From IMG/VR virus record IMGVR_UViG_2913112809_000003: a stretch of DNA of 47,567 bases; one strand, written 5' to 3'. The translations under genes were made by a program, and so were the position numbers. Positions 1 to 19,396 of the stretch are shown here, piece after piece. Position 1 is the stretch's first letter. Each line of letters opens with the position of its first letter. This stretch comes from a virus. Taxonomy: Duplodnaviria; Heunggongvirae; Uroviricota; Caudoviricetes. Under the pieces are notes generated by a model. That model worked only from the letters and a program-made list of their open reading frames with translations. It had not been told where the DNA came from and searched no databases.

Positions 1-603
1 TCAAGCACCTGTTGCGGCTAATTTACAAGCGGGTTTGTCGGGAAATTTCACAGGTAATTCAGACGTGTCCGTCGCTTCAACTTTTTGGGCATACAACATC
101 CACTCCCTGAGTGATTTTTTATCAGCTTCGCTGATAATCCCAAGTGACAGCCACGTTTGCCACAGCTGTGTTTTTTCCATTATCTCCTGAAGTAATTTTT
201 GCTTCTCCCGTTCAGCGTCACGAATTTTCGCCGCCCTTTCGGCCTCGTCGTCTTTTATCCATTTCGCACCATCCCATTGATGGAATTCCCCCTCTGGCGG
301 TAAAGTGGTGACATCATCCGGCAAAGCCCCCGGACGGGAAATGCACAATGTCTTCCCGGTGGCTGTGTCATATACCGTTTTCCCACGGTGATCTTCAACA
401 ACTTCCCACTGTTGCTGTGCATCGTTGAAAACGGCAACCTGGCCGGGGCCAGCCTCTGGCGGTTCGATAAGCGTGCAGTTCGCCGGTAATCCTGTATTCG
501 GCGGAATATAAACATCTCCTGCGCCTATATACTCTTTTGTATCAGCCCGTAAGTTATAAATTTTCAGTGTCCGGGATTCTGGACTCATTTTGAAATGTGT
601 CAT
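1..603 (-). CDS. tail fiber assembly protein (Tfa-type chaperone)
   Basis: 200-aa ORF with stop at window positions 1-3; C-terminal region resembles the second Tfa copy at 7978-8523; lies immediately downstream of a tail fiber gene, overlapping its stop by 4 nt. Confidence 0.75.
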
Positions 604-1997: not shown

Positions 1998-2021
1998 TTT
2001 TATTACCTGATACAGAAAACA

Positions 2022-3122
2022 CTAACCAAAATAATTCACGCCCTTTTTATCCGCTTTCTTCTTCCCTGAGGCCTTCCCTTTCGCGGAAATATCGGTCGCC
2101 AGCGACAGATTCAGCGCAAACCCATGCCCTGGTGCCAGTGAAAACTCCACTGACTCTGCCTGCCAGTTATGATCTTCCCGTACTCCAAACCCCTGCGTGA
2201 TAAAACGCATCTCTGCTCCCGCTTTCAGCAGTGCCGGTCTGCACGGTAGCGTTATCGTCATCTGGCGTCCGGCTTTCTGCACGCGTTTAACTTTCGAGTC
2301 TGCACAGTGTTTTGCGGTGCCCTGGTCAGGCTGGGTAAACGGATGCCGCTTGTCTGTAGACTCCACATCCACTTTAACTTCTCGTGTGCGTCCGTCACGG
2401 GTATCAAAATATCGGACACCCACTTTCCCATTCTTTTTGTCTCCCTTCCCACTACCCGCAGCACCCTGTCGTTCGCCCTCCCGGTAATCCCAGTCTGACA
2501 CCATATCCGGTGTGATGGTCATCACTGGGGTATCTCTTCCGCCTGTACTCTGCGATGCACCATACTCCAGAAATAACCAGTAACCGTTCGTCGGTTTACT
2601 GGTGGCACCATACACGCCTGCAAGCCGGGACAGGAGGGCTGCGTCTGATTCTGATGACTGCATCACCCAGGAGATACGAATATCAGCAAGCGATGGTGAA
2701 ACCCGCGCCACCAGATTATTTTCAGTGGCGATGGTTTTTACCAGGTCGCCCAGCGTGATATCGCTGAAGGCGCGGGTTTTCAGTGCGGTCACATCCGCGC
2801 CATGTCTGGACGCATTCATGGGGGCTGCGGTGGCATAAATGGTGATCCGGCGGGGAGGGCCACCGCTTGCCACCTGACAGACGGTAAAGCTGCCTTTATT
2901 TACCAGATTTCCATTAAATCCCAGCCCCAGCGTTAATACCGCACCTTTCGGAGGCAGCGCCATCGTCTCGCTGAACAGCGTTACCATCAGTTCATCGGAT
3001 CGCTTTGTGGCCGCACCATTATCGGTATAACGCAGTTCTGCCAGCCCCCGCTTTATGGCCTTTGTGATATCATTACCTTCCGCTGTCAGACTGAAATCAG
3101 GCTGATATTCATTCAGTCCCAT
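2022..3122 (-). CDS. tail protein D (P2 gpD-like late control D)
   Basis: 366-aa ORF at the end of the U-X-D block in P2 gene order; sequence resembles gpD-family tail proteins. Confidence 0.8.
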   Translation of the reverse strand: MGLNEYQPDFSLTAEGNDITKAIKRGLAELRYTDNGAATKRSDELMVTLFSETMALPPKGAVLTLGLGFNGNLVNKGSFTVCQVASGGPPRRITIYATAAPMNASRHGADVTALKTRAFSDITLGDLVKTIATENNLVARVSPSLADIRISWVMQSSESDAALLSRLAGVYGATSKPTNGYWLFLEYGASQSTGGRDTPVMTITPDMVSDWDYREGERQGAAGSGKGDKKNGKVGVRYFDTRDGRTREVKVDVESTDKRHPFTQPDQGTAKHCADSKVKRVQKAGRQMTITLPCRPALLKAGAEMRFITQGFGVREDHNWQAESVEFSLAPGHGFALNLSLATDISAKGKASGKKKADKKGVNYFG

Positions 3123-3331
3123 AACTGAAACGCCTCCTCCTCTTCCGGCTCATATGTCCAGTCCGGCAACACGATTTCCACCCCTGCGGGATACACCGGA
3201 CCAAAGTCAGCAATCCCCGGATTAGCCTCCAGTACCGCTGCCAGTGACTGGTTAAGTCCGGCACTGCCATAGTGTCTCTGACAGATATCATCCAGCATAT
3301 CGCCGTCAGTGGTCCGCCAGTTTTTCGCCAT
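3113..3331 (-). CDS. tail protein X
   Basis: 72-aa ORF between the gpU-like and gpD-like genes, the usual position of tail protein X in P2-like tails. Confidence 0.7.
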   Translation of the reverse strand: MAKNWRTTDGDMLDDICQRHYGSAGLNQSLAAVLEANPGIADFGPVYPAGVEIVLPDWTYEPEEEEAFQLWD

Positions 3332-3782
3332 AGTATTTCAGCTCCAGTGTGAACGTTTTGTTCTTCGGCGCACCGCCGGGAAGAAAGGACGTGGTGTTAT
3401 CTGAATAGGCAGTTGCCACAAAATACCCCATCACATCACCTGTGCTCGAAACCAGAAGATGCGGAGCCGGATTGTCATCCACCATCTGAACCAGTGTATC
3501 AAGGGCATCCATTCCCACACCGTCACGAAATCCCGCATGCACCATACCTTCAAGGGTTATTGTTCTGGCCCCCTTACCGGTATACTGCAGCAGGTCGTTT
3601 TTTCCGATAAGTTGCTGTTCATCCCATCGCCATTCCATAGTGCGCTTCATGGCGTTATAGGCTGCCGTATCAATACTGAATTCAAACTCACCAAACGACA
3701 GCATGACGCGGGAGGCGACATCCGTTAATGAGCCCACCGCGTCCCATGCTTCACGCTCAAGCCGGTTTACGCCCCAGCCCAC
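3306..3782 (-). CDS. tail protein U (P2 gpU-like)
   Basis: 158-aa ORF directly downstream of the tape measure gene, matching the T-U-(X)-D order. Confidence 0.7.
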   Translation of the reverse strand: MGWGVNRLEREAWDAVGSLTDVASRVMLSFGEFEFSIDTAAYNAMKRTMEWRWDEQQLIGKNDLLQYTGKGARTITLEGMVHAGFRDGVGMDALDTLVQMVDDNPAPHLLVSSTGDVMGYFVATAYSDNTTSFLPGGAPKNKTFTLELKYYGEKLADH

Positions 3783-3797
3783 GTAAATCCACCATGT

Positions 3798-5450
3798 TCA
3801 CCCCCAGAATGCATCACCATCGGTCATGCGGGAACGCTGACCAAAATTAATATCTCCCAGATTTCTCATTACCCTGTCTGCCAGTTGTCCGGCATCCTCG
3901 CCGGGCTTCTGGGTGATGTTAAATTCCGCTCGTATCTGATACGTGGGTTTTACTTCCACCTGGCTGATATTGCCGGGGGTATACTGAAGAGCCGAGAGAG
4001 GGTCCGAATTACCCTGCCCATGGTCTGCTGCAGGAAGTCCGTCAATGTAGGTGCGGGATTTCTCTTTTATCGCCTTAAAATCAGGTTCTTCTTTCGGCCC
4101 CAACAAAGGGTCGAGAAAAGCATCAAACTTTTTATCATCATGATTCCAGGGGAGATAACCGCGAGTGTCTTTATAGGCCTGTACAACCTGTTTCGTCAGC
4201 TCCGGATTTTGCCTGAGCAGTTCATCAAACCACTCCCCCTGACCGTTTTTCTGCGCTACCGCTCTCGCCAGCTCCGGCGACCCCATTTTTGCCAGATATT
4301 CCAGCACTTCTCGTCGGTCCTCTCGCGGATCATCCGCCAGCCCCCACTCAATGGCTTTCTGCGTTATTCCGGCAAGAACTTTTCCAAATTTCCACATCCA
4401 CGCAGCCATGTCGATCAGCGCCGGCAGGGCATCATCACGGATAAATGCCCGGATTTTTTCCAGCCCACCATTCTTAAACCAGGCCGCAAGGTCATCCGTC
4501 ACCTGTTGAATATGTGGAGCAAGTTCATTACCCAGCTGTCCGCTGATTTCATCAATTGAAGAACTCAGAACATAACGGAAATTTGACAACGCCACATGCC
4601 CCTGAACTGCGCCATCAGCCCCTTCCTTTGTCACCAGGTTATAGCGTTTCTGCTCACTGATAAGTTCCTGGAAGGTCTTTCCTGACAGACGCATCCAGGT
4701 CAGGATTTTATTGGCTTCACCACCAAATAACGCATCTGCCATCCCCGCAGCCTGCTGCTCATTCGCCACCTGCAGTAAGCGTTCAAACAAAAACTCGACC
4801 TGCTCCTGGTTGTTTTTTCCGGCCATTACGCCCGCTTTCAGCCCAAGTTTACCGAATACGTCCTGAATGGCTCCTTTGTCCTTGGCACCATTATCATCGT
4901 CAAAAACCTTGTTCCGGTATTCCTCAAACAGATCACCGATGTTTTCGCCGTTTAACCCCATCTGCCGGCCCAGTGAATCCCACGCCGCATAGGTTTCATA
5001 ATCCACCCCGTAACTCCGGGCTATCCCTGACCGCTCTGCCGTTTCCGCATTCCGGTTCAGTACCGCGCCGGCACCGGCTGCCAGCGTAAGCCCGGAACCA
5101 ACCGAAAGCCCCAGCCCGGTTTTAAGAACAGTCCCGGCCCGTCCTTTCCAGCGTTCCAGACGTTCTGCCCGCGCCAGCTTACGGTTAAATTTATCCTGTT
5201 CCCCGGTGGCATCATGAATTTTTCTGCCCAGCTTTTCATACTGCTTTCGCAGTTCGGTAATATCCTGTCCTGCCAGTACACCAGCCTGAATTTTTCGTTT
5301 CAGTACGTCCTGCTGGCGTGTCAGGCGAGCCACTTCCTGTGTTGCCCCTGATAATCCGTGCTTCAGTCCATCAACCGATTTTTTCCACGACGGATCTATC
5401 GAACCTCCGATCCGGATATTCGCTTTAAGGTTATCGCCCACCGTTGCCAT
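3798..5450 (-). CDS. tail tape measure protein
   Basis: 550-aa ORF, Ala/Gly/Leu-rich and predicted helical, directly downstream of the E/E' chaperone gene. Confidence 0.8.
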   Translation of the reverse strand: MATVGDNLKANIRIGGSIDPSWKKSVDGLKHGLSGATQEVARLTRQQDVLKRKIQAGVLAGQDITELRKQYEKLGRKIHDATGEQDKFNRKLARAERLERWKGRAGTVLKTGLGLSVGSGLTLAAGAGAVLNRNAETAERSGIARSYGVDYETYAAWDSLGRQMGLNGENIGDLFEEYRNKVFDDDNGAKDKGAIQDVFGKLGLKAGVMAGKNNQEQVEFLFERLLQVANEQQAAGMADALFGGEANKILTWMRLSGKTFQELISEQKRYNLVTKEGADGAVQGHVALSNFRYVLSSSIDEISGQLGNELAPHIQQVTDDLAAWFKNGGLEKIRAFIRDDALPALIDMAAWMWKFGKVLAGITQKAIEWGLADDPREDRREVLEYLAKMGSPELARAVAQKNGQGEWFDELLRQNPELTKQVVQAYKDTRGYLPWNHDDKKFDAFLDPLLGPKEEPDFKAIKEKSRTYIDGLPAADHGQGNSDPLSALQYTPGNISQVEVKPTYQIRAEFNITQKPGEDAGQLADRVMRNLGDINFGQRSRMTDGDAFWG

Positions 5451-5870
5451 AACATCGCTTCCTCTCTTCCGACTCCGCCAGCATCATTGCCACAAAATCC
5501 GTATACGGCAGCGCCATCACATCTCCCGGAGACCACCCGAACCAGGCACCGGCGCGCCGTATCGCCGTCAGGATGCTTTCTTCTTCCGCCGGACCGGCGG
5601 CAGCAAAAAAACATTGAACTGCCGCTCCAGGGTCAGGTAATCACACGCTTCCATGTTCATCATGTCCGCCGCGTCCATCCCGCACAGACCGGCAATCATA
5701 TCCAGATCAGCCTCTGCTTCCGGTTTGGTACTCCGGCGATGCAACAGACGATCGCGGACGGTAGGCGCACGCATGGTGACATGCGTGATCGTCTGTCCTG
5801 ATGCGGTGACATACGGCACGGATAACACAATTTCCACACTGCTGGCGGGAACACTGTTTTTTTCCAACAT
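5431..5870 (-). CDS. tail assembly chaperone E+E' (predicted -1 frameshift fusion product)
   Basis: The -1 frame stays open from the slippery heptamer (minus strand, plus coordinates 5604-5610) to a TAA at 5431-5433, adding about 56 acidic residues and overlapping the tape measure start, as in P2 E/E' and lambda G/GT. Confidence 0.5.
5568..5870 (-). CDS. tail assembly chaperone E (zero-frame product)
   Basis: 100-aa ORF between tail tube and tape measure genes; contains the slippery tract T TTT TTG near its 3' end. Confidence 0.75.
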   Translation of the reverse strand: MLEKNSVPASSVEIVLSVPYVTASGQTITHVTMRAPTVRDRLLHRRSTKPEAEADLDMIAGLCGMDAADMMNMEACDYLTLERQFNVFLLPPVRRKKKAS

Positions 5871-5931
5871 AATCGTCTCCTTTTAAAAAAGAAAAGGCGG
5901 CCTGAGCCGCCTGAATGACAGGATGCCGGGA

Positions 5932-6450
5932 TTAAACCCGGATAATTTTTTTCAGATCCGACAGAACATTAACGCCGTTAATACGACGCACAAATTCCTC
6001 CGGAATAATGCAGATGGTTTCCAGACCGTCGACAGCCTGACGGTAATAACTCAGTGACATTTCCACCGTCACCGAAGCCTCAGCCTGTGATGTTGCCGGG
6101 CGCGCATCCGGGGTGATACTGGTGATCATCCCCTGCAGGGTTTCCACCTGTCCGCTGGTCGCATTCCCCACCCGGTAAGCCTGACGAACAACGATCTCCG
6201 GTGAATAAAGTCCGGCCTGCAACCCCAGCAGAGTCAGCATGGCAACATCGTAGCCATAAATTTTAAATGAGCAGGTCAGTGCTTCCATGCCATCATCCAC
6301 TGCTACCGGTGCATCCATTGCGCCGGTTTTGATATCCACTGTCGTGATATTAATGGCAGGCGGCGTGTATTCATGTGCCCCCTGAAGACGGATCCCGCCA
6401 GGAAGAAATAACGCCCACGCGCGCAACAGTTTTTTTTCACCCGTAATCAT
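5932..6450 (-). CDS. tail tube protein (P2 FII-like)
   Basis: 172-aa ORF immediately downstream of the sheath gene with a 4-nt overlap. Confidence 0.85.
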   Translation of the reverse strand: MITGEKKLLRAWALFLPGGIRLQGAHEYTPPAINITTVDIKTGAMDAPVAVDDGMEALTCSFKIYGYDVAMLTLLGLQAGLYSPEIVVRQAYRVGNATSGQVETLQGMITSITPDARPATSQAEASVTVEMSLSYYRQAVDGLETICIIPEEFVRRINGVNVLSDLKKIIRV

Positions 6451-7922
6451 ACTGTCAGCTCCTCCAGCGCCAGTTTATTGTTAATCATCGCCCGCAGTGT
6501 CAGGCGCTCCAGTGGTGACTTCGGCCCAAAGTCATAATCAATATACAACCGCCCTGCCGCCAGGGTTTCTGCTGTATTCAGTTCATCATTCAGCCAGGCA
6601 CTGCCCCCGTGGATCGCGCCCAGATTTTTAAGCTGGCGCATATAGGCATTAATACTGCCAAGAATGTCTTCTGCCACATCCCGATCAAGCGGTCGGTCGA
6701 CATAAGGCAGCATGGCCTCCTGAATGCTGTCTTCAATCACATCTGCTGTACGGCGTACCGGCTCAAAACGCCACTGGCTGTGGGATGAGCACAGACGGTT
6801 CCCCCAGTGTTTAAAACCGTCGTGGCGAATAATGGTGGAGATATTTTCCATGTTCAGCAGGTTTGCTGTGCAGTTCTGCTCTCCGAGAATAAATGTGTCA
6901 ACCTGCTCCAGTCCGGTGATATTCATCACGTCCTGGTTTGACTTGGACCACCACCATCCTTTTTCGTAATCAATACGGGCACGTAGCCCTGCAGCTCGTG
7001 CTGAATACGGACGAAATACCGTCTGCCCGCTGTCATCCATCACTGACACGCGCGGACGCAGCAGCTCCACACGCCCGCCAAAGGACGCACGTCGCTGAAC
7101 CACATCCTGCGGCGTTGCCATTGAGGGAGAGTCTATATAGGCCACGGCCCGTAACTTCGCTGCGTACGTTTCCAGCGCCTTTGCCACGCCATCATCCTCA
7201 CTGTAACCAGTAGCGATAAGAATGCGCGGCTGGTAGCCCGTTTTTCCTTTGCTTTCCATCAGGGCTTCCATTGCCCGAATGACTGCCGCGCGCTGTTCTG
7301 CTTCCTTTGCCTTCGTTTTGCTTTCCGCACGCACCACAATCACCAGCGCACCTGTCTGGTCAAAAATATCACGCAGGGCCGGATATAATGTCCCGGCTGC
7401 GCCCAGTTTCCCGGCCTGAGTTAACGCCCCCGCCACCACCACCGGTGTATTAACCGGAAACGCCTCATCCTCTCCGCCGGATAAGGTCAGACTGAACGGC
7501 GACACCACATTATTTTCTGCACCCTCTGCATTCAGTGGACTGACCGCCACTGTCACTGGCGAATCACCCAGTGCATTCACCACCTCAATCACACGAGCCA
7601 CCGTGGTGTTAACCTGGCTGCGTTCATCCGTACCCAGCGTTATCATCAGGGTCGAACCTTCCAGCGAAGCCGCTGTCTGCGCGCTTTGCTTTGTGGCAGC
7701 GACAGCAACAACCGAAATATTATTGCCAGCCCTACCTTCCTGTTTCGCCGTAAAATCCAGCGCCGTTCCCAGCAGCCACGAACCGGCTGTACCGGAAGCA
7801 CACACACCACCGGAGGCGTCCGGCGCGGTCCCCACCAGGCCAATTACAGCTGTGGAGATGGTCTGCACGGCAACCGTGCCTGTCGTCAGTTCAATGGTTT
7901 CAACACCATGTAGTCCGGACAT
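6447..7922 (-). CDS. tail sheath protein (P2 FI-like)
   Basis: Start set at the in-frame ATG at 7922 preceded by GGGAGA; N-terminus MSGLHGVETIE aligns with the P2 FI N-terminus as recalled. Confidence 0.9.
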   Translation of the reverse strand: MSGLHGVETIELTTGTVAVQTISTAVIGLVGTAPDASGGVCASGTAGSWLLGTALDFTAKQEGRAGNNISVVAVAATKQSAQTAASLEGSTLMITLGTDERSQVNTTVARVIEVVNALGDSPVTVAVSPLNAEGAENNVVSPFSLTLSGGEDEAFPVNTPVVVAGALTQAGKLGAAGTLYPALRDIFDQTGALVIVVRAESKTKAKEAEQRAAVIRAMEALMESKGKTGYQPRILIATGYSEDDGVAKALETYAAKLRAVAYIDSPSMATPQDVVQRRASFGGRVELLRPRVSVMDDSGQTVFRPYSARAAGLRARIDYEKGWWWSKSNQDVMNITGLEQVDTFILGEQNCTANLLNMENISTIIRHDGFKHWGNRLCSSHSQWRFEPVRRTADVIEDSIQEAMLPYVDRPLDRDVAEDILGSINAYMRQLKNLGAIHGGSAWLNDELNTAETLAAGRLYIDYDFGPKSPLERLTLRAMINNKLALEELTV

Positions 7923-7933
7923 ACATTTCTCCC

Positions 7934-7958
7934 ATAAAAAAACCGCCCTTAAGGCGGT
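7934..7958 (-). terminator. intrinsic terminator between the fiber operon and the sheath operon
   Basis: Hairpin ACCGCC-cttaa-GGCGGT followed on the minus strand by a T7 run, lying between the Tfa stop (7978) and the sheath start (7922). Confidence 0.5.
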
Positions 7959-7977
7959 CAGATAATTCATTTCTTTT

Positions 7978-8523
7978 TCAGATATTTTGTGGTGGCTCAG
8001 GCCAGACGATATTGTTGTAAGTGGCCTTATCCGAAATATTGCTGAAATCCATCATCTGCAATTTCTTTGCGTAAATACGGTACGCCTTCAGCTTTTCTTT
8101 ATCTTCGTCGCTGATTAACCCAAGTTGCAGGTCTTTTTCCCACTCGCTGGTCACGATACTGACCTGCTTTAACAGAGCATCGCGTTCGTCTTCTGCTTTT
8201 AATTTGTAGTCGAAAACAAATTCATCATTCCGGTAAAACCAGTAGCCTGACGCTGCAATACGACGATTCGCGGTAATGTCCGGCAGTTCAATTACGCTTT
8301 TATTTTCCGGGCAAACCGATGTGATATTTTTCCCGACCCAGACGACTTCTCCCGTTTTGACATAAATCACTTTGAGAGTGTCTGGCTGAAATTTTTCCTG
8401 AGCTTCATGCCATTCCTGACCATCCTCTGAGAACAGCCACAATAAAAATTTATGCTGTCGTGCCAGTTGGTATTGCTCAATCGTTTTAGGGTTCTGAACA
8501 GAAATATTTTTTAAATGCATCAT
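7978..8523 (-). CDS. tail fiber assembly protein (second Tfa copy)
   Basis: 181-aa ORF immediately downstream of the gpH-like fiber gene; C-terminal region is similar to the Tfa at 1-603. Confidence 0.75.
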   Translation of the reverse strand: MMHLKNISVQNPKTIEQYQLARQHKFLLWLFSEDGQEWHEAQEKFQPDTLKVIYVKTGEVVWVGKNITSVCPENKSVIELPDITANRRIAASGYWFYRNDEFVFDYKLKAEDERDALLKQVSIVTSEWEKDLQLGLISDEDKEKLKAYRIYAKKLQMMDFSNISDKATYNNIVWPEPPQNI

Positions 8524-8525
8524 AA

Positions 8526-9914
8526 TTACAAACTCGCTACATTCCGCCAGACGCCATTAATCAGAACCTGCACCGGGCGGGCATTCGCCCAGTCCACGCT
8601 TTCGCCACCATCAACACCGCTCAGCAAATGGCCTGATGGTGCATTCCCTCCACGCCCAATCCCAACCGCACTCCCCAGTCGCACATCCTGTACGATCCCT
8701 GTTTTCATCTGGTAACGGGCATCAAAGTTTCCATAATTTGATGGCACTACCTGTCCGTTTACAGCGAACGTGATGCTGTTATCTGTATTCCTCTGGCTGT
8801 AAAAATGCCAGCCTGAATCATCACCAAGTTCAACAACTACGGGTCTGGATGAATGCCCCCATAAATTAAACGTTGCATTTTTCGCAGATTCGTTAGTGCT
8901 GGATAGCGTAAATTTCCTGGCATTTCCGGCCTGAATATTTTTTAACGCTATTGCCACCCCATTCTGAAAACGAAATACATGCTGTCCATTCGCATAAACA
9001 TCCAGAATGCCGTCGCCGTTTTGTTTTATACCTGTATCGTTATCTCCGAGAGCAATTGAGTTACCGCCCAGTGCGTTCTGAACGCCGATACCCAATGCAC
9101 CATTCACCTGAGAACCACCGCCAACAGACACTTTGTGGGACATGGATATCTCACCCGTCCGCAAATTTATGGTGAACGGACGCAGGGGGCCAATATCGCC
9201 ATTTTCACCCTGACCTTCACTGGTAGGGATAAGGTGCAGGCACTCTTCCGAACGACGAAAAATCAGGCCAAAAGCTTCGTTGAAAATCCTCAGCGCATTC
9301 ACACCATGGATTTTCAGTTCCCCGCTCATGGTGTCACCATCACGCTGAACGGCATTTTTTGCCTTGTCTACCGTGGGTTTTAATCCGAGGTTATCAATTG
9401 CTTCGTCATTGTCTTCCACATCTGAAAGATTGTTTTTTCGTTGCAGATAACGCCTGTCACCTGTTTCCTGGGTAATAATGGCCCTTTCAGGATCAATCTC
9501 CAGCGTCACATTCTGGGTGTGGGTAAGCGCCAGAACCATTGTCAGTATAACTTCTTTGATAACAGAATCAGTCTGCGCCGGTAAATACGTGTCGGGATAA
9601 CGACCATAAGCAATCAGCGTACCGCTGCTGCTAACCATTCCCAGCTCACGCAAGGTTCTTCCGGGATATTTTTTACAGTCAATGACAATGTCACCACTGA
9701 TAAATCCCTGCTCAACCTTACCTTCAGAAAACACTTCCTGACCAAATTGCCCCAACAATGCCGACATTGAAGCCATCTCATCCGGTGTTGATGGTAACGT
9801 TTTACCGCCGCCATCCCCCGTCAGTACATGAGTGATCGTAACCACCTGACCAGTCTGATAAGCCGATTCAATTTCGGCTGCTCCTTGTATTGTTAACGTC
9901 AGTCCTGATGGCAT
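8526..9914 (-). CDS. tail fiber protein (P2 gpH-like)
   Basis: 462-aa ORF in the H position of the V-W-J-I-H-G block; Gly-rich C-terminal receptor-binding region. Confidence 0.8.
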   Translation of the reverse strand: MPSGLTLTIQGAAEIESAYQTGQVVTITHVLTGDGGGKTLPSTPDEMASMSALLGQFGQEVFSEGKVEQGFISGDIVIDCKKYPGRTLRELGMVSSSGTLIAYGRYPDTYLPAQTDSVIKEVILTMVLALTHTQNVTLEIDPERAIITQETGDRRYLQRKNNLSDVEDNDEAIDNLGLKPTVDKAKNAVQRDGDTMSGELKIHGVNALRIFNEAFGLIFRRSEECLHLIPTSEGQGENGDIGPLRPFTINLRTGEISMSHKVSVGGGSQVNGALGIGVQNALGGNSIALGDNDTGIKQNGDGILDVYANGQHVFRFQNGVAIALKNIQAGNARKFTLSSTNESAKNATFNLWGHSSRPVVVELGDDSGWHFYSQRNTDNSITFAVNGQVVPSNYGNFDARYQMKTGIVQDVRLGSAVGIGRGGNAPSGHLLSGVDGGESVDWANARPVQVLINGVWRNVASL

Positions 9915-9926
9915 ACATTCTCCTTA

Positions 9927-10496
9927 TCAGTCTGTAAGTAACGAACAATAATTAAACGCATTAGCAACAGATACCGGATCCGGAAACTTTGCCATAAATT
10001 CTGACTTACTGCCTGTTACATTGCTGCACTGGAAAAACAAATATGACAGATTGCATTTTTCAGCAAACACATCCGGGAATATATCATTAATGTCCATTGC
10101 CAATAATGTGCACTCACGAAACATTTCGGTCATGTCGACACTACTTTCCCGATGATTAATCACCCCACAAGGAACCTTAATCAATGACGAACACCATCTG
10201 AACATGCCTCTGCTCACGGTAAGTGGGCAGTCTGCAAATAGTTCACTCTGAATCTTCGTTAATGCATTGCAATTCGAAAAAATATAAGACACATCTTTCA
10301 GCGAAATACATCCTCTGAATGTGTCAGCCGGTAACATAATAAGTTTTCTGCAATTTGCAAAAACGGAATTCATTGATATCAGAGATGTACAACCAGAAAA
10401 AATCCCTTCACCGATCTCAGTCGAAATATTACAGTTAGCAAACGTTTCTGATGCCGATTTAACTGACACACACCCCGAAAAAAAGTCTGTCACCAA
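9927..10496 (-). CDS. C-terminal leucine-rich-repeat segment, out of frame with the upstream gpI-like gene
   Basis: 189-aa ORF with a TTG start only; continues the roughly 23-residue F-x-x-C-x-x-L-x-x-I repeat of the upstream ORF; the two frames meet at a T7 tract (plus 10478-10484). Confidence 0.5.
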   Translation of the reverse strand: MVTDFFSGCVSVKSASETFANCNISTEIGEGIFSGCTSLISMNSVFANCRKLIMLPADTFRGCISLKDVSYIFSNCNALTKIQSELFADCPLTVSRGMFRWCSSLIKVPCGVINHRESSVDMTEMFRECTLLAMDINDIFPDVFAEKCNLSYLFFQCSNVTGSKSEFMAKFPDPVSVANAFNYCSLLTD

Positions 10497-12339
10497 TGCT
10501 TTCCAGTGATTTGCAGTTATAAAACACCCCGTTTATTCCTGTCAGCTTCTGACATCCCTCGAATAAGCCATCGCCAACATGGGTAATACTGTGGCAGTTG
10601 TAAAACGCATTATTAGCAGAACGAAGATTATCTGCCCCAGAAAACAATCGCGCAGGTATACTGCGTATACTGTCACACTCATTAAATATGCCATCAATAT
10701 GCGCAATTCTGCTTCTGATAACATCCGCCCAGCCACCGGGAATGGTTGTCAGTGTTCGGCAACCATAAAACGCACAGGACAAATCAATTGATGATGCGTC
10801 GTTTTCGTTCTGCTCCCCAAATATCGCCGGGAGTTCCGCAAGATTACAACACCCAGAAAACGCCCTGTAAAAATTCTGAAGTCTGTGAGCTGGAATAGCG
10901 GGGGCATTAACCATCTTCTCACACCCGGAAAAAGCATTTTCAAAAGTCAATGCATTCTCCATACCAGCGAATAATGTCTCCGGAACCCGGACGATCTCCG
11001 AACAGCCACAAAACAGTTTTGAAAGTATGTTCGCGCTTGATTTTGTCGCAAATAAAAGTGGGATGTCTGTCAGGGCAGAGCACCCATAGAATACACCAGA
11101 CCAATTCACCACAGCTTCGCACCTGGCAAAAAGATTTTCAGGTAATTCATGAAGAGACGAACACCCCCTAAAGGCATTCTCAAATGAAAGTACGTGAGGC
11201 AGATTATCAAAAGAACCTGCGTGAATTTTTCGCAATGCCCACTGCAGATTCGCAAACCACGACATGTCTTTTCTGGAACCACTGACGCGGATGATCTCCA
11301 GGAGTGGATTGGTGTTGTTTACTGCCTTCGGGGTGTAGAATGTCAGACTTTCCGCGCCCTTAATCGTCAGTGTAATTTCTTCTCCGACCGGCAATGTGCG
11401 GGTAGCTTTGACCACATCCTCCTTAATCACATAATCTCTGCTGTCCAGTCCATCACCATAATCAATAGTGAAGTCGTTATCCTGGGGATCGATAAAAAAC
11501 AGTGGCATGCTGGCGTTATCTGCCCGGATAATAACCTGAACAACCGACACAACACTTACCGGCAGTCTGGCAACCACTCCATTTACCGTTGATACGACGA
11601 CTGTAGTTCGACCAGACTGTTTCCCTGTCAGAGTAACCACATCACCAGAAACACTTATCGCGGCCACACTGTCATTTTCGATTTGTACAGAAAATACGCG
11701 GGAATCAGCAATCAGTGGTAGCACCGTCACCTGCACAGAAACAACGTCTCCAGGGGCCAGTCGTAAGTTGTCTGATGACAACTGTATTTCTGACGGCAGT
11801 ATCCTGTTTTTCATCTTTTCCGTCGCTGTCACATACCCATAGCTGTATCCGTTCCCCTGGCAGCCCCCATAAACATGAATACTGAACCAGCTGCGCAGAT
11901 TTTTGGCACGTAATACGGCATGTTTCAGATCCTGGTGGTCACTCATCAGGACAGGCAAGTCCTTCTGCTCCACATTCAACCGGAAGGTATAGGGATCACC
12001 AGGCGGCGTCTGCTCATACCATTCCACAATCTGCGACCGGAACGGACTGTCAGCCAGCGACGCCATCAGCGCCGCTTTAGTCCCTCTGTGGCGATGGATA
12101 TAGGCGGCACGCTTTATAGCAGAACGTTTTTCCACCTCCGTCCAGTGTTCATTCCAGGTATCTACTGCCATTTCCCAGGCCAGCCATGGCAGCAATTCAG
12201 CAGGACATAAATCGGGATTTTTCACATAGCGGATCAGACAGACCGCTATGTCTGCCAACATATCTCCGGCGACACAGTCCACCACCCGCTCTGCCCGGCT
12301 GGCATTGACCGGCAGTATGCTCCTGATATCGTCATTCAT
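10459..12339 (-). CDS. baseplate protein with gpI-like N-terminus, Ig-like middle region and C-terminal leucine-rich repeats
   Basis: 626-aa ORF in the P2 gpI position, overlapping the gpJ-like gene; the first ~170 residues resemble gpI, followed by a Val/Ser/Thr-rich beta region and then Cys-containing leucine-rich repeats. Confidence 0.8.
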   Translation of the reverse strand: MNDDIRSILPVNASRAERVVDCVAGDMLADIAVCLIRYVKNPDLCPAELLPWLAWEMAVDTWNEHWTEVEKRSAIKRAAYIHRHRGTKAALMASLADSPFRSQIVEWYEQTPPGDPYTFRLNVEQKDLPVLMSDHQDLKHAVLRAKNLRSWFSIHVYGGCQGNGYSYGYVTATEKMKNRILPSEIQLSSDNLRLAPGDVVSVQVTVLPLIADSRVFSVQIENDSVAAISVSGDVVTLTGKQSGRTTVVVSTVNGVVARLPVSVVSVVQVIIRADNASMPLFFIDPQDNDFTIDYGDGLDSRDYVIKEDVVKATRTLPVGEEITLTIKGAESLTFYTPKAVNNTNPLLEIIRVSGSRKDMSWFANLQWALRKIHAGSFDNLPHVLSFENAFRGCSSLHELPENLFARCEAVVNWSGVFYGCSALTDIPLLFATKSSANILSKLFCGCSEIVRVPETLFAGMENALTFENAFSGCEKMVNAPAIPAHRLQNFYRAFSGCCNLAELPAIFGEQNENDASSIDLSCAFYGCRTLTTIPGGWADVIRSRIAHIDGIFNECDSIRSIPARLFSGADNLRSANNAFYNCHSITHVGDGLFEGCQKLTGINGVFYNCKSLESIGDRLFFGVCVS

Positions 12340-13246
12340 CGGTTGTCTCCACCTTGTTCAGTGTTACCTTACGGCACCACGGTGCCTGCCCCATCGCAGG
12401 AACGATATCGCTGGCAGGAGAGGTCAGATTCACCGTAATCACCCCGGTCTGGTGCAGTGCACCATCCATGCCGGAACGGGATGCCACTGAACCAATCCTG
12501 TGGACACTGTCAGTGTAAGACTGCAGCGCCTTACGGGCATTTGCCATTACCAGTTCACCATCCAGTCCGTAGGGAATATGAATATTCGCCACCACGTCGT
12601 AGGGAATAATTTCTGCCGCCCGGACACTGACAAAATCCGTCAGGGGACGGGTTTCATCATCACTGACTGATGCTGCCACCTTATCCAGCAGGGGTTGTGA
12701 TGCGGTGCCATTTCCTGACCGGGATAACACATAAAGAAAAACCCGCCCTTCCTGCGAATGCGTTTCCGGCCCGTAGGCTTTCACATCCAGCACATCAGGA
12801 TCAGCACTTTGTGCAAAATAGTGGTACGCATTTTTCGCGCCAGCGGTGCTGAGCCGTGCCCATGACAACTGAATGCGTTCGCGAAAGGCGTCATCATCTT
12901 CATACACCGCCGGCGTGGGCGGAATGGTGCTGTCGTCTGCAGGGGTAATTACCAGCCGCTGTACCTGATAATTCGCGCCAACCTGATCCAGATCGTTCCC
13001 TCCGGCACTGGCAAGCAGTACTGCACGAACTGCATCATTTATTTGCTGGCGCATCAGCGCCACCCGAAAAGCCAGTGCCTCCGCCCATTTATAAGCAGGA
13101 TCAGATTCCACCAGTGCTGAAAACAACGTATCCAGCTCCTGATACTTCGCCACTATCTGAGAGACGAGCATTGCGGTATCCGGCACTTCCACAGCATCCG
13201 GTACCGGTATCGCGGACAGATCAATGATTGCCTGAGACATTGCCAA
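12332..13246 (-). CDS. baseplate assembly protein J (P2 gpJ-like)
   Basis: 304-aa ORF in the J position between the W-like and I-like genes. Confidence 0.85.
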   Translation of the reverse strand: MAMSQAIIDLSAIPVPDAVEVPDTAMLVSQIVAKYQELDTLFSALVESDPAYKWAEALAFRVALMRQQINDAVRAVLLASAGGNDLDQVGANYQVQRLVITPADDSTIPPTPAVYEDDDAFRERIQLSWARLSTAGAKNAYHYFAQSADPDVLDVKAYGPETHSQEGRVFLYVLSRSGNGTASQPLLDKVAASVSDDETRPLTDFVSVRAAEIIPYDVVANIHIPYGLDGELVMANARKALQSYTDSVHRIGSVASRSGMDGALHQTGVITVNLTSPASDIVPAMGQAPWCRKVTLNKVETTDE

Positions 13247-13577
13247 TTTTTATCTCCTCGAGTCGAATCGTGTCCTGAGTTTCGTTGTTCACCCCGACAA
13301 GCGTCAGCCAGGCGCTCCCTTCTCCTGTCCACGTCACCTCCACCCGCCGGAGGGTCAGGCGGGGTTCCCAGCGTTCAAGGGCGGTTGCCGTTTCACGGAC
13401 AATTCTCACCCGCGTGAAATCATCCTGTGGGTTATCAAGCAGACTGAACAGTCTGCTGCCGTATTCCCTGAGCAGTACCCGGCTGCCGACCGGCGTTGAC
13501 AAAATATCGGTGACGGACTGGCGCAGATGTTCGTTACCGTGCAGATATCTGCCGGTGGCTGAATCAATACCAATCAT
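13221..13577 (-). CDS. baseplate protein W (gpW/gp25-like)
   Basis: 118-aa ORF between the V-like and J-like genes. Confidence 0.8.
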   Translation of the reverse strand: MIGIDSATGRYLHGNEHLRQSVTDILSTPVGSRVLLREYGSRLFSLLDNPQDDFTRVRIVRETATALERWEPRLTLRRVEVTWTGEGSAWLTLVGVNNETQDTIRLEEIKIGNVSGNH

Positions 13578-13610
13578 GTTGTTTATTCCGGAAAAAAACT
13601 GAAAAGGAGA

Positions 13611-14234
13611 TTACATTTGCTGACCAGGCTGTCCGGTGCTGCCACCACTGTCGCCCCGGTGATTGTGACCGTTATAGACAAGCCGGATTTGACTCATCGT
13701 TCCGTAATAATCAGAAACCTCACCACCGACCGTCAGATCCGCCTTAACTACCGCTTCAGTATTCATGGTTGCTTTACCATGTACGGTCAGGGTGTCTGTG
13801 ATTTCTACCGGACCGTCCAGGGTTCCCTTGCCGGTAATTTTATAGCTACCGCCTTCAGCCAGCGTGATGGACAGGGCATTAGCCTTACGGTCGTAACGGA
13901 TTTCCGTTCCGGTATCAAACAAAATAACATGTTCGTATTTACTGCCCTCAGGGACAGGGATAGCGTCAATATTGGCCCCCGGATACACCCGACCGTTACG
14001 CAGATCGCCCGCCTCCGATATCACCGTAACGGCATCGCCGGGGGCCGGATAATTACTGACCTGCATGTAGCGCCCGGACTGCACCTGAATCCAGGGTAAC
14101 GGCGGCGAAAGCACATCCCCGATATCCACCCGAACCATCACCGGACTACCCGGTATCACTTCCTCCACCACCCCACGCCGCACCATATCCGCCACCCTGC
14201 GGCGTAACTCTGCCACTTCATCTGCCAGACTCAT
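13611..14234 (-). CDS. baseplate spike protein V (gpV-like)
   Basis: Start assigned to an internal ATG at 14234 (MSLADEVAELRRR); the ORF's 5' extension overlaps the upstream gene; an alternative ATG lies upstream. Confidence 0.75.
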   Translation of the reverse strand: MSLADEVAELRRRVADMVRRGVVEEVIPGSPVMVRVDIGDVLSPPLPWIQVQSGRYMQVSNYPAPGDAVTVISEAGDLRNGRVYPGANIDAIPVPEGSKYEHVILFDTGTEIRYDRKANALSITLAEGGSYKITGKGTLDGPVEITDTLTVHGKATMNTEAVVKADLTVGGEVSDYYGTMSQIRLVYNGHNHRGDSGGSTGQPGQQM

Positions 14235-14784
14235 TGCCGGTGCCCTCGGTTTTCCAGATAAGACGATAATCCCGCTCATGTCTCTTGCCAGTTTCCGGTA
14301 CTTTCCCCAGCCAGACTTCCTGTAATGGCGCACCTGCCGTAACCGCGAACGGATCTTCCCCGACAGGAATATCCTGTTCGAAAGAAACACGGAAAACGAT
14401 GTAGTCATCCAGAAGCCGGTCGAAGGTATCCACCTCTGCATCAATAAAAACAGCCGGATCAACGTTATCCAGCCCGAACGTGGCCCCCTCAATCCAGTCA
14501 GACAAATCCATCGCCAGGCAACGGGCAAAAATCTGCGGTTTTGGCACGTTTTCCGTCTTTCCGGCCCGGTCTGTCACCACAAACAGATCACATTTCAGCG
14601 TGACCCGCGTCTGCCCGTCGGCAAACTGAGTCTTGTCCCAGCCAGGTACATCCACAAACACGACAGGCGTCACCAGTTGCGTCACTTTTTCCGGGTATTC
14701 ATCAGCATCTTCCACCCAGGGAATTTGTTTCAGACTGTCAATCACCGCCTGATGCCAGGCTCCCATCATCAATGGCTCCATCAC
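14218..14784 (-). CDS. hypothetical virion protein (tail completion region)
   Basis: 188-aa acidic ORF between the head genes and baseplate V, in the position of P2 R/S-type tail completion genes. Confidence 0.5.
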   Translation of the reverse strand: MMEPLMMGAWHQAVIDSLKQIPWVEDADEYPEKVTQLVTPVVFVDVPGWDKTQFADGQTRVTLKCDLFVVTDRAGKTENVPKPQIFARCLAMDLSDWIEGATFGLDNVDPAVFIDAEVDTFDRLLDDYIVFRVSFEQDIPVGEDPFAVTAGAPLQEVWLGKVPETGKRHERDYRLIWKTEGTGNESGR

Positions 14785-15503
14785 TCCAGCCCCTTAAATA
14801 CCCGGAATTTCAGTTCATGCTCAAAATTTTTCAGGATCAGTGCTTCCGCATCCGGAAAAACAAAATCCTCTATACGGTTCAGCATGGCTTCATAAATATC
14901 AATTTCCGCTTCACGCACCCTCCGTCGTCCGGATGCCTGTCGGACCAGTATCGTTTTCCTTTTTGATATACGTCCGTTACGATTTTCCGTTTCGAACTGG
15001 TTGATGAAGGCATCATCCGTTGACCAGGTGGTGACAGGCAGGGATTCCCCGGAAGGTTTAAAACGGATCTCCCGCGCCTTCCTGCGGTGGGAAGCTGGTG
15101 CAAAACGTCCCCGCTCATCGCGCAACTGATGACGTTCGCCGCGTCGTCCCCCACTGATGCGTCCGCGCAGATCACGTACTTTGATGGCATTCAGACCAAA
15201 CCACACCTTCGCCTCATCAAACTCATCACCGTTACGACGAATGACAAAATTATGCAGAACACGCTTTTTGATCATTTTCTGACTGCGTGGGGCAACCTGT
15301 TTTTTAAACTCTGCCATAGCCTTCATCCGCAGTGCAGACGAAGCTCTTTTCAGTGCCACGCCCCAGGCTTTACGGATCTGGCTTTTTGAACCGCCCAGTT
15401 TAACGATAATTTTCAGCACCTCATCTTCATCAATATCGACGACGAGGTTTCGTGCCAGCCGTCGCTGCCGGGCACTGCTTCGTTCATGCTCTCTGACTGC
15501 CAT
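14781..15503 (-). CDS. putative virion morphogenesis / tail completion protein
   Basis: 240-aa basic ORF overlapping its neighbours by 4 and 20 nt within the head-tail joining region. Confidence 0.5.
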   Translation of the reverse strand: MAVREHERSSARQRRLARNLVVDIDEDEVLKIIVKLGGSKSQIRKAWGVALKRASSALRMKAMAEFKKQVAPRSQKMIKKRVLHNFVIRRNGDEFDEAKVWFGLNAIKVRDLRGRISGGRRGERHQLRDERGRFAPASHRRKAREIRFKPSGESLPVTTWSTDDAFINQFETENRNGRISKRKTILVRQASGRRRVREAEIDIYEAMLNRIEDFVFPDAEALILKNFEHELKFRVFKGLE

Positions 15504-15891
15504 AACGTTTACTCGGTCGTTCCGGCGCGGAAGGTGTATTTCTCCCCGGCTCTCCCCGCGCGAGGGTGATGGTAATCACACCCTGACCCGCAGTGCCTGA
15601 CTCATCCCAGCCGGGATCGAGTACCTGGTAGGGTTCGCCGTGGATCATGACCCTGTCATATTTTTTCAGACCGGCGGCCCATGCACTCCGGGTAAATAAC
15701 ACGGGCGCAGTATCACGAATTTCGCCGCTGCCAGTGTTCATCCCGGTGTTATCTGCCGGGGCATCGAAAACGGCACGGATTTTTCTTTCCGTGCCGCCAG
15801 GATATATGCTGATTTCCGTCCCCATCGTATCCAGGATGATGTCATCCGCATCACTCATGGCCTGATCGAACAGATTATCGAACATCATCAC
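15484..15891 (-). CDS. putative head-tail joining protein
   Basis: 135-aa ORF two genes downstream of the major capsid gene. Confidence 0.5.
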   Translation of the reverse strand: MMMFDNLFDQAMSDADDIILDTMGTEISIYPGGTERKIRAVFDAPADNTGMNTGSGEIRDTAPVLFTRSAWAAGLKKYDRVMIHGEPYQVLDPGWDESGTAGQGVITITLARGEPGRNTPSAPERPSKRYGSQRA

Positions 15892-16256
15892 TCCCGGATT
15901 TTTTCTGCCAGACCGTCCGCCAGTAATGCAGGAACGGCAGCTTCATTAACCAGCACAACACTGGAGGCCCGGGCGAACATCAACATCTTTCCTGTCGCTG
16001 CATCACAGGCTGGCATATGTGCCGTTTTCAGCATGCGCACCCGAACGAGTCCCCGCTCAGAATGCATCCCGTCGCCGGATACGTTGTTGTCCACCTCTTC
16101 CGCCCCTGTATCCCCCACATCAAATCCAGCGGCCTCCTCTTCCCATTCCGCCAGGCGCTGTTCAAGATCGGCTTTTGAACCTGAAATATCTGCTTCACGC
16201 CCCAGAATCACTGCCAGCTCCTGAAGGCGTTCCGTCATCTGCTCTTTTGTCATCAC
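15888..16256 (-). CDS. putative DNA packaging / head stabilisation protein (FI position)
   Basis: 122-aa acidic ORF immediately downstream of the major capsid gene, as lambda FI is. Confidence 0.5.
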   Translation of the reverse strand: MMTKEQMTERLQELAVILGREADISGSKADLEQRLAEWEEEAAGFDVGDTGAEEVDNNVSGDGMHSERGLVRVRMLKTAHMPACDAATGKMLMFARASSVVLVNEAAVPALLADGLAEKIRE

Positions 16257-16303
16257 ATCTCTCCCGTGCGCTAAAGAAAAAGGCGGGAATATCCCGCCCA
16301 GTC

Positions 16304-17332
16304 TTATTTCACCTGAACCACCACAAACGCATCCGGATCCGGCAGCACCATCAAAGGTGCAGACTGCGTCATGGTATATTCACAACCAGGATCACCCACT
16401 TCCTCCCAGTGTTTCGGATAACGAATTGCAGAGGTGATCCCTTCACTCAGCGCCTGATTATCCTGAATAGCACCATAGCAACGGACGCCTTCCGCCTGGG
16501 TATTTCCCAGAATCAGTGTACCTTCAGGCAGATAACGCTGTTCATCCCCGTTTTCGTCAACATACGTTGTCTTCGCCACCACGACAGCCAGATCGCCGTA
16601 CCAGCCCTTAAAGGAAACCACGGAACCCAGATCTTTCAGTGCCGTTTCCAGCTCAGATTTGGAGCCACGGCGTGTATCCAGTTTTTCACGGAACAGTTTA
16701 AAACCGTTCAGCATACGCCAGACCGTGCCGTCCATAATCGCGATATTGATGGTGCCGGAAGCAAAATCGCAGTACGCATCCAGATCATGCGTCGGATCGA
16801 AGGTGTCATTATTCTGCTGTGACCATTCGCGTCCGCCAGCCTGTGTAATGTTATTGGCGGCAGAGCGCCCAAAATCCACTTCCACCGTCTCAAACTGCTC
16901 GCCGCTCATGGTGTATTTACCCTGCAGAACGGCGCTGACTGCCTGCATTTCTTCCACCTGCACAATTGCCTGCTCCTCCTGTTTCAGGTTGTCCGTCAGA
17001 ATACGCAGACGGCGGTAGGCCGGGTCATTAAGGCGGGCCGGATCTTCCCCCGGAAGACGTTCTACCGCCTGCTGATAATCAAAGCGGTGTTTTGGTTTTA
17101 CGTAGCCGGGACGTAACACGCGGGTTTCACCACCACGGCTGCGCAGCACTTTGCCTGACACCACCGGAGACACATACGCCGCAACCGGCGTTTTGCCGGT
17201 AATTTTATCCAGCATGACTTCCTGAGTATGAAAAGTGATCGTGCGGCGAAAGAACAGCTCCAGAAACAGCGCACGAAATTTCACTTTCTGCTCGGTGTAC
17301 CCGAGTAACTGACGCGTGGTAAATAACCCCAT
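16304..17332 (-). CDS. major capsid protein (lambda gpE-like)
   Basis: 342-aa ORF sharing long motifs with lambda gpE as recalled, for example AIVQVEEMQAVSAVLQGKYTM, KLDTRRGSKSELETA and MTQSAPLM. Confidence 0.95.
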   Translation of the reverse strand: MGLFTTRQLLGYTEQKVKFRALFLELFFRRTITFHTQEVMLDKITGKTPVAAYVSPVVSGKVLRSRGGETRVLRPGYVKPKHRFDYQQAVERLPGEDPARLNDPAYRRLRILTDNLKQEEQAIVQVEEMQAVSAVLQGKYTMSGEQFETVEVDFGRSAANNITQAGGREWSQQNNDTFDPTHDLDAYCDFASGTINIAIMDGTVWRMLNGFKLFREKLDTRRGSKSELETALKDLGSVVSFKGWYGDLAVVVAKTTYVDENGDEQRYLPEGTLILGNTQAEGVRCYGAIQDNQALSEGITSAIRYPKHWEEVGDPGCEYTMTQSAPLMVLPDPDAFVVVQVK

Positions 17333-17401
17333 AATTTATTTTCCTTCATAAATACAAACGGGCCGCATCGCGACCCGTTTTTTCAGTTAATCACTTCACC
17401 A

Positions 17402-17737
17402 TCAGGCGTGGCTGATGGCACTTCCCACAAAAGCGTTGGCTTTTTTCACCGCATCCACCGAACCAGGCCAGACCAGCGATTCAGTGGCAAACGTACCGCT
17501 TTTGTAATACGTCAGCGTGGGCTCGGTCCCGGCAAGCGCCAGAGCCAGCACCCCCACAGCCGTTCCGGCTTTCTGACCATCCCAGACCACCAGTTTTCCG
17601 GTGGCGTCATCCACCATCAATGGCGTCAGTGCAGGCGTGGCAGCACTGATACCACTGGTGGCTGTTGCGGTATGCGCCGGATCGCTTCCGGCAAAAATGC
17701 GCACATCTGCACGCTTTTCCGTGGTGGTTTTAATCAT
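17402..17737 (-). CDS. head decoration protein (lambda gpD-like)
   Basis: 111-aa ORF with the motifs SDPAHTATA and TYYKSGTF, between the protease and capsid genes. Confidence 0.85.
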   Translation of the reverse strand: MIKTTTEKRADVRIFAGSDPAHTATATSGISAATPALTPLMVDDATGKLVVWDGQKAGTAVGVLALALAGTEPTLTYYKSGTFATESLVWPGSVDAVKKANAFVGSAISHA

Positions 17738-17776
17738 TTTCTCAGTCTCCTGATTTATCTGAATTCCGGATACCGC

Positions 17777-19396
17777 TTACGGCATACTCATCAGCAGATC
17801 TTCTTCCCCACGCCCGGCAGTTCCGCCACCGGAAACCGCGCTGGCGGCATGCTGTGCCATAAAGCGATCAAAAAGTGTTTCCTGTGACGGTTGCGATGCC
17901 GCCGGTGCGGCTGCCAGCAACGTTTTCGCCTGCTCCACCGTCATTCCCGGTTGTTCTGCCAGCGCCTGTGCGAGTTGCTCGCGCCCTTTCGCCTCGGGCA
18001 GTGCCATAATTTGATTGCCAATACTTGCTGAACCAGCAACCGGTGCCGCCGCCAGTAACGTTTTCGCCTGGTCAACAGTCATTCCCGGCTGTTCAACCAG
18101 CGCCTGTGCGAGTTGTTCGCGCCCTTTTGCTTCCGGCAACGCCATAATCTGATCGCCTGTACCTGCAGCACTGGCAGCAGGGGCTGCCGCCAGAAACGCT
18201 TTCGCCTGCTTCACCGTCATCCCCGGTTGGCCTGCCAGCATCTGTGCCAGCTGTTCACGCCCTTCTGCTTCCGGCAGCGCCATAATCTGATCACCCGTGC
18301 TGCCAGTACCGGCAACCGGCGCTGCTGCAAGCAACGTTTTCGCCTGCTCCACCGTCATACCTGGCTGGCCTGCCAGCATCTGTGCCAGTTGCTCGCGCCC
18401 TTTCGCCTCCTGACAATTCAGGATCCCCATCACACGCTGATTTTCCTGGGCCACCGCTTCAGCAACGGTGAGATTTTTAACAGTCATTGCATTCTCCTTC
18501 GTAACAGAGTCATTCAGTGCAGAAACCATCACTTCAACGGCATCTGCAGCATTAATCAGTTGATCAGCCAGGCCTGCATCAATGCCTGCCTGACCGTCAT
18601 AAACGGCAGCCTCGGTATTCATCACCGTCTCTGAACTCAGCCCCGTGTAAATTGCCACCTTGTCGACAAACATCCGGCGGGCCTCATCAATACGGCGCTG
18701 AAAATCCGCACGCACACCTGCCGGCAACGCCTGAATACTATTGCCGTCAACCTTGTGCTGCCCGGAGTAAATCAGCGTGATATCCACCCCTTCCTGTGCC
18801 AGTTGTTTCTCGTAACTGGTGTGCGCCATCATCACGCCAATCGAACCAATTTTTGCCGTCTGCGTGACCAGCCGACGAGTACAGGCTGCTGCCAGCAACA
18901 TGGCGGCTGAACAGGCCATGTCATTACACAGCGCCCACACAGGTTTCTGTTCCCGCAGACGGTAAATCATGTCAGCGCAGTCAAACGCCCCGGCAGCCTG
19001 GCCGCCCGGACTGTCGATATCCAGCAAAATGCCGCGCACATCCGGATCATTCACCGCCATCTGAAGGCGGGCCGTCAGGCCGTCATAGCCGGTCATGCCG
19101 GAATAAGGCCGCAGAGTGCCCAGTTTATGCACCAGTGTGCCGCTCACCGGCAGAATGGCGATACCATTCTTCACCTGGTAGCTCTTTGCCGGACGCTGAC
19201 CGCCCGCCATATAGTCAGTCACCGCCAGTTGCATGCCGTCCGCATCAAGCTGAACGTCCAGTTGCGGAACAACAAGGCTGCCTGCCCCCATCTCCTTACC
19301 CAGCGCGCAAAAGAAAACCCGCGCATAGGCGGGTTCCAGTAAAAGCGGTTCATTAAATGCCATGGCAGCAATATGCGATAAATTACGACGCATCAC
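17777..19396 (-). CDS. head maturation protease / scaffold (lambda gpC/Nu3-like, S49 peptidase)
   Basis: 539-aa ORF; N-terminus MAFNEPLLLEPAYARVFFCAL matches lambda gpC as recalled; C-terminal part carries tandem repeats of the Nu3-like GREQLAQ..PGMTV motif. Confidence 0.9.
   Translation of the reverse strand: MMRRNLSHIAAMAFNEPLLLEPAYARVFFCALGKEMGAGSLVVPQLDVQLDADGMQLAVTDYMAGGQRPAKSYQVKNGIAILPVSGTLVHKLGTLRPYSGMTGYDGLTARLQMAVNDPDVRGILLDIDSPGGQAAGAFDCADMIYRLREQKPVWALCNDMACSAAMLLAAACTRRLVTQTAKIGSIGVMMAHTSYEKQLAQEGVDITLIYSGQHKVDGNSIQALPAGVRADFQRRIDEARRMFVDKVAIYTGLSSETVMNTEAAVYDGQAGIDAGLADQLINAADAVEVMVSALNDSVTKENAMTVKNLTVAEAVAQENQRVMGILNCQEAKGREQLAQMLAGQPGMTVEQAKTLLAAAPVAGTGSTGDQIMALPEAEGREQLAQMLAGQPGMTVKQAKAFLAAAPAASAAGTGDQIMALPEAKGREQLAQALVEQPGMTVDQAKTLLAAAPVAGSASIGNQIMALPEAKGREQLAQALAEQPGMTVEQAKTLLAAAPAASQPSQETLFDRFMAQHAASAVSGGGTAGRGEEDLLMSMP
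17900..18400 (-). repeat. in-frame tandem repeats (about 3.6 copies of ~138 bp) inside the protease/scaffold gene
   Basis: The protein segment GREQLAQ(M/A)LA(G/E)QPGMTV.QAK..LAAAP...G..IMALPEA(E/K) recurs at residues 333, 379, 424 and 471. Confidence 0.8.

Follow-up and report, generated by a model that had tools for sequence, protein, structure and literature searches.

The apparent division of a phage tail gene of Escherichia sp. E4742 into two open reading frames is very probably an assembly artefact, in which a run of six T was called as seven in the Ion Torrent draft of this strain. The DNA under analysis, referred to below as the window, is the whole stretch of 47,567 nucleotides and represents contig PDHY01000022.1 of assembly GCA_004745255.1 (Escherichia sp. 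E4742). On its minus strand the order is GGTGACAGAC, then TTTTTTT, then CGGGGTGTGTGTCAGTTAA, with the T7 run at window positions 10484-10478. The features concerned, as they read in the window and after repair, are the following.

10478..10484, minus strand: T7 homopolymer (A7 on the plus strand), one T of which is very probably spurious
10459..12339, minus strand: ORF1, 626 aa, ATG start, stop TAA, identical to WP_135522648.1
9927..10496, minus strand: ORF2, 189 aa, TTG start with GTG as second codon, very probably an artefactual ORF
9927..12339, minus strand: the real gene, 2412 nt after removal of one T, 803 aa, identical to WP_138159174.1 / QCT89430.1
12332-13246: baseplate J gene (Pfam Baseplate_J), upstream neighbour of the real gene
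8526-9914: tail-collar fibre gene (Pfam Phage_tail_fib), downstream neighbour of the real gene

Re-reading of the sequence bore out the observation, made in a first-pass annotation, that a T7 tract at 10478-10484 on the minus strand splits two ORFs. The stop that had been placed 9 codons after the tract was about right as well, eight codons and a stop (L F F G V C V S *) being counted in ORF1 past the codon in which the tract starts. The T run lies inside an ORF, where one additional base changes the reading frame, and since the frame of ORF2 is +1 to that of ORF1, a one-base deletion joins both. Deletion of one T gives an 803-aa product with zero internal stops, in which the site of the extra T is coded as CTT TTT TCG (Leu-Phe-Ser). 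Compared with this product, ORF1 consists of the first 620 residues of the true protein followed by six out-of-frame residues and a false stop, and ORF2 holds the true C-terminal 183 residues, that is, LRR repeats and the C-terminal cap. The TTG start that had been noted as the only one available to the 189-aa ORF was confirmed and sits just upstream of the T tract; the ORF is not an independent gene. Its status as a separate gene with a ribosome-binding site of its own was considered and rejected, since no strong Shine-Dalgarno sequence was found 5' of the TTG/GTG, the region upstream offering a weak GGAAAG only. The exact 189-aa protein had no match in a collection of 15 billion proteins. 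A 7-base run is unremarkable in itself in this window, where 26 runs of at least seven bases and 62 runs of six were counted, and the repaired gene contains four T6 runs in all, which are by-products of the Phe-rich codons of its repeat motif.

Public records already include the intact 803-aa gene and its annotation, WP_138159174.1 / QCT89430.1 being described as 'phage tail protein I [Escherichia sp. E4742]'. In the repaired protein the F-x-x-C motif recurs at a spacing of 14-13-14-13 residues from aa 579 to 701, and the T tract itself codes for the FSGC copy at aa 620, the periodicity being unbroken there. Pfam LRR_5 (PF13306) passes its gathering score of 27.7 with 38.8 bits on the 803-aa protein, while the split halves, with 26.0 and 19.4 bits, both remain under it. 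The earlier claim that the repeats continue seamlessly when one T is removed thus held good, both the F-x-x-C periodicity and the LRR_5 threshold being restored. Tail_P2_I (PF09684) was matched over its full profile at aa 9-149 with 117 bits against a cut-off of 20.6 (E = 8e-34), a Big_2-like Ig domain at aa 185-249 is weak and under the Pfam threshold, and a long BspA-type LRR region reaches the C-terminus of the 803-aa protein. By its domains, the real gene codes for a baseplate protein of the P2 gpI type that is extended at its C-terminus by an Ig-like and a BspA-type LRR part. It shares with P2 gpI a full-length Tail_P2_I domain and a place between the baseplate J and tail-fibre genes. The gpI proteins in the same 90% cluster are mostly of 196 aa and without the extension, which makes this gpI unusual and the Ig/LRR part (~600 aa) an add-on; the latter may be a candidate accessory host-recognition module on the baseplate, and the first-pass description of a receptor-binding protein is plausible. 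The PHROGs match is phrog_9915, a family of unknown function. Among deposited phages, the closest match to the C-terminal 533 aa is YP_009882546.1 (32% identity over 91% of length), the 1008-aa 'tail protein I' of Klebsiella phage ST16-OXA48phi5.4 (Peduoviridae), whose gene occupies the same position (L028 2185-5211).

In Ion Torrent sequencing, a homopolymer is recorded as a single flow signal and its length is taken from the amplitude of that signal, with the consequence that runs are miscounted, as is well known of this platform. The intact E4742-specific 803-aa protein also has Logan listed as a source, while the 626-aa WP_135522648.1 is found on one contig only, PDHY01000022.1, and has no Logan source. 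From the Logan source of the intact protein, it would appear that the Ion Torrent reads, once re-assembled, give T6. Either the reads themselves or their consensus presumably miscounted the run in the draft. The ends of a short Logan contig, SRR6148341_397, were also considered as an Ion Torrent fingerprint and set aside as too weak, only one end abutting a homopolymer (A8, 29557).

For the draft itself (PDHY00000000), Ion Torrent single-end reads of 35-400 bp at 50x were put together by MIRA and SPAdes; the contigs were ordered on references and the gaps then closed by hand, and E4742 was alone among the 16 strains reported in having more than 100 contigs (PMC6639607). The strain was resequenced with PacBio RSII (P6C4, 172x), and Canu gave one contig of 5,120,753 bp, no polishing of this assembly being described (PMC7716201). 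In the PacBio assembly (VATS01000001.1, L011) the tract reads T6-C-GGGG within one 803-aa gene. The window protein with one T deleted exactly matches QCT89430.1 / TLJ08661.1 / WP_138159174.1 of Escherichia sp. E4742, encoded on the 5,120,753-bp contig, and the version with one G deleted is absent from the protein collection. Since only the T-deleted protein is recorded and the PacBio DNA reads T6-C-GGGG, the extra base is a T. The PacBio sequence could not, for all that, be taken as a gold standard, as RSII-era PacBio assemblies systematically under-call homopolymers of at least five bases, and homopolymer miscalls with PacBio RSII lead to genes annotated as two CDSs or frameshifted (PMC4687164). 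Because of this bias, each discrepancy between the two assemblies was arbitrated by relatives sequenced by other means.

For the tract, 15 independent records were available, the PacBio assembly and 14 others. They comprise three complete mouse E. coli genomes, ten further genome/Logan contigs, a sister clade II strain among them, and one contig each from IMG/VR and a metagenome. The tract is T6 in 15/15, with T5 or T7 in none of these records, and this comparison of tract length among relatives, which the first-pass annotation had proposed, favours a sequencing error. An intact 803-aa single ORF is present in 14 of the 15, the other (L012) being a 5'-deleted derivative that still has T6. The two-ORF layout was found in none of the homologues, all of which show a single in-frame ORF; homologues with two separate genes, which had been named among the findings that would speak for a genuine division, were thus not encountered. 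By megablast against complete E. coli genomes, the mouse-derived strains M8, RSHH22 and SK6988 were recovered with a match over 2500 of the 2501 query bases and 99.2% identity over the gene, which in all three is one 2412-nt CDS for 'phage tail protein I' (WP_129541818.1, 803 aa). The mouse allele reads T6-CC-GGG against T7-C-GGGG in the window, a difference of one substitution and one inserted base; a plain T6-to-T7 call from this allele alone was accordingly not retained, since the added base could then be either T or G. Megablast against deposited phages gave no match, and a pattern scan of genome contigs found neither tract allele.

Comparison of the draft with the PacBio assembly over window positions 1-19915 gave 0 substitutions and two differences, both +1 in the draft. 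Over the whole window outside the repeat junction there are 0 substitutions and five single-base length differences, the draft being longer at 5/5 of the sites, with 4/5 in runs of at least six bases.

10478-10484: T7 in the draft, T6 in PacBio; T6 in 15/15 independent records
3782, minus strand: extra G in the draft, TTTAC[G]TGGGC; G absent in 11/11 covering loci and in the PacBio assembly
26946-52: seven bases in the draft, six in PacBio; 2/2 relatives with the PacBio length
41939-47: nine bases in the draft, eight in PacBio; relatives show both lengths
26726-34: nine bases in the draft, eight in PacBio; relatives show both lengths

Arbitration favoured PacBio at three sites (the tract, 3782 and 26952) and was uninformative at the other two, and at none of the five do relatives uniformly contradict PacBio. 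As both lengths occur in relatives at 41939-47 and 26726-34, neither platform is assignable as wrong there, and in view of RSII under-calling the constant +1 of the draft could partly reflect PacBio deletions. The G at 3782 is not in a homopolymer; it lies five codons into a gpU-like tail gene (PF06995) of 162 aa in all relatives and puts its ATG out of frame, so that the gene would need a downstream GTG start. This G is most likely another Ion Torrent error, and draft-only bases break genes at two places in all (10478-10484 and 3782). In a 24-kb comparison with SK6988, 481 substitutions and six indel events were counted in the window. Both E4742 assemblies have four of these indels, all of them between genes: in a hairpin loop, in the region of a ribosome-binding site and in two short runs. 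The other two, inside genes, are exactly those that the Ion Torrent draft alone shows. Real indels are thus filtered by selection and the two draft-only ones are not, as expected of errors. Two DNA preparations of E4742 could also be truly different.

These features are those of the homopolymer miscalls of flow-based platforms (Ion Torrent, 454), where likewise a single-base error in a run of at least six splits a gene into two ORFs, is absent on resequencing with another platform and in relatives, and is accompanied by further length discrepancies in the contig; nothing of substance distinguishes the present case from them. The change here is of a single base in a homopolymer (T7 versus T6), the source platform is error-prone (Ion Torrent, 50x; PMC6639607), resequencing of the same strain by PacBio, which has a homopolymer bias of its own, gives T6, the relatives are without the change in 15/15 records, and four more +1 differences occur in the same 47.5 kb, two of them unassignable to a platform. 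The course of events would then be that Ion Torrent miscounted T6 as T7 in the E4742 draft, that the extra T shifted the frame within one FSGC repeat motif, and that the shifted frame met a false stop six codons on, so that the final 183 codons were left over as an ORF of their own, in which a TTG is present by chance. The organism itself would carry one 803-aa gene.

Among the three explanations put forward by the first-pass annotation, the homopolymer sequencing error stood, while the recent pseudogene and the on/off switch gave way before the T6 of 15/15 records. A real and recent pseudogenising mutation would mean that E4742 truly has T7 and that PacBio under-called the run, coincidentally restoring the ancestral frame. 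The known RSII-era under-calling of homopolymers of at least five bases (PMC4687164), the direction of the 5/5 draft/PacBio differences, which is that of the PacBio bias, and the genuine indels that separate the prophage from its relatives, for instance the four intergenic ones versus SK6988, are all in keeping with such a mutation. It is nonetheless highly improbable, as it needs a real +1 plus a PacBio error at the same base that recreates the sequence of the relatives, and the same coincidence once more at 3782, a non-homopolymer site. Moreover, the intact E4742 protein has a Logan source and the 626-aa form has none, and the informative relatives (at the tract, 3782 and 26952) side with PacBio. 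Slipped-strand phase variation, with T6 (ON) and T7 (OFF) within E4742 switching the LRR extension and the two projects having sampled different states, is very unlikely too. Homopolymer switching is well known for surface and receptor genes of other bacteria, and the slipped-strand contingency loci of Neisseria, Haemophilus and Campylobacter resemble the present one in having an in-ORF homopolymer in a probable recognition protein, where a change of +/-1 switches the frame. The E4742 tract lies within the coding region of a probable host-recognition module and the two assemblies of the strain differ by tract length alone; if the switch were true, it would be a prophage-borne control of host range or adsorption through a short intragenic T tract. 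However, tract-length polymorphism is zero in the 15 independent records, the true length is six, three other T6 runs in the gene come from the same Phe-rich motif codons, and the sole 'OFF' copy is from an error-prone platform. In an enterobacterium with working mismatch repair, a hypermutable A/T tract would be expected to be longer than T6. An in-ORF tract was therefore found as in contingency loci, but neither length polymorphism nor an unusual length or conservation; CC-GGG in the mouse allele versus C-GGGG after the tract implies that its context is not specially conserved. The additional bases of the draft at intergenic runs and at a non-homopolymer site also fit error and not a switch.

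Recoding, in which the full-length protein would come from the two overlapping ORFs by transcriptional slippage on T7 or by a programmed +1 shift of the ribosome, is to all intents refuted, no other record having the split, and its probability is close to nil. The sequence T TTT TTC does resemble a slippery heptamer, and programmed frameshifts occur in phage tail clusters, as in lambda G/GT and P2 E/E+E', where overlapping tail-cluster ORFs are likewise joined at a run of identical bases. In contrast, these are conserved -1 shifts in a tail-assembly chaperone gene, whereas the E4742 gene codes for a baseplate protein, needs +1 and is split in no homologue. The heptamer is, besides, one for -1 shifts, whereas ORF2 occupies the +1 frame, and the two-ORF layout is unconserved, homologues and the PacBio assembly of the same strain having a single in-frame ORF.

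With a miscounted T6 as the preferred reading, the gene is intact in the organism and the split consequently matters little as biology. It matters for the records: the entry WP_135522648.1 (626 aa) and its neighbour of 188/189 aa should be treated as artefactual and read as the one 803-aa protein WP_138159174.1, and any frameshift, pseudogene or phase-variable tract read from this contig, or from the 15 sister drafts PDHW-PDIL made with Ion Torrent, should be checked likewise before it is interpreted.

The prophage that carries the gene (window ~1-24000, minus strand) is a mosaic. Its packaging and head genes are lambda-like (Nu1/A terminase, gpW, portal, S49 protease, head decoration protein, gpE-like capsid, FI), and the contractile tail to which they are joined is P2-like (V, W, J, I, sheath, tube, gpU, X, D). 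The prophage has two separate modules of tail fibre and assembly chaperone, one with a 462-aa fibre after gpI and the other with a 465-aa fibre after gpD, at ~600-2000. In M8, an IS66-family element (tnpA/tnpB/tnpC; L001 10522-13110) lies between the tail-fibre assembly and tail sheath genes; this insertion is absent from RSHH22 and SK6988, and the M8 prophage is otherwise identical. The 5'-deleted record L012 (GCA_965256735.1 CBDGLT010000013.1, ~7500-8100) has a deletion of ~2.37 kb (L011 coordinates 5674-8044) that removes the baseplate V, W and J genes together with the N-terminal domain of gpI and leaves a 628-aa LRR-only ORF. It looks like a decaying prophage copy.

Aligned with the PacBio genome, the window is a chimera of two prophages ~220 kb apart. 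Positions 1-36502 correspond to ~4.250-4.287 Mb, with the late and tail genes, adjoining potB, and positions 35832-47567 to ~4.484-4.496 Mb, with a Rac-like integrase, recT, exoVIII, cI/cro and a DnaT-like region. The two prophages share an identical stretch of 283 bp (35847-36129) in the region of a DUF977 gene, and the change from one to the other takes place within it. As reads of at most 400 bp cannot reliably span such a stretch, the draft contig is probably mis-joined between the two prophages at window ~35832-36502, and gene-neighbourhood inferences across ~35.8-36.5 kb are therefore unsafe. In the second of these portions, a small Rac-prophage gene (WP_001314664.1, 91 aa; L029-L032) has the run at 41939-41947 at its end. 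Among complete E. coli genomes, eight bases in this run give an intact CDS, and nine bases are annotated as 'frameshifted' in WP4-S18-ESBL-07 and ST70, suggesting that the tract either varies genuinely or has repeatedly been misassembled.
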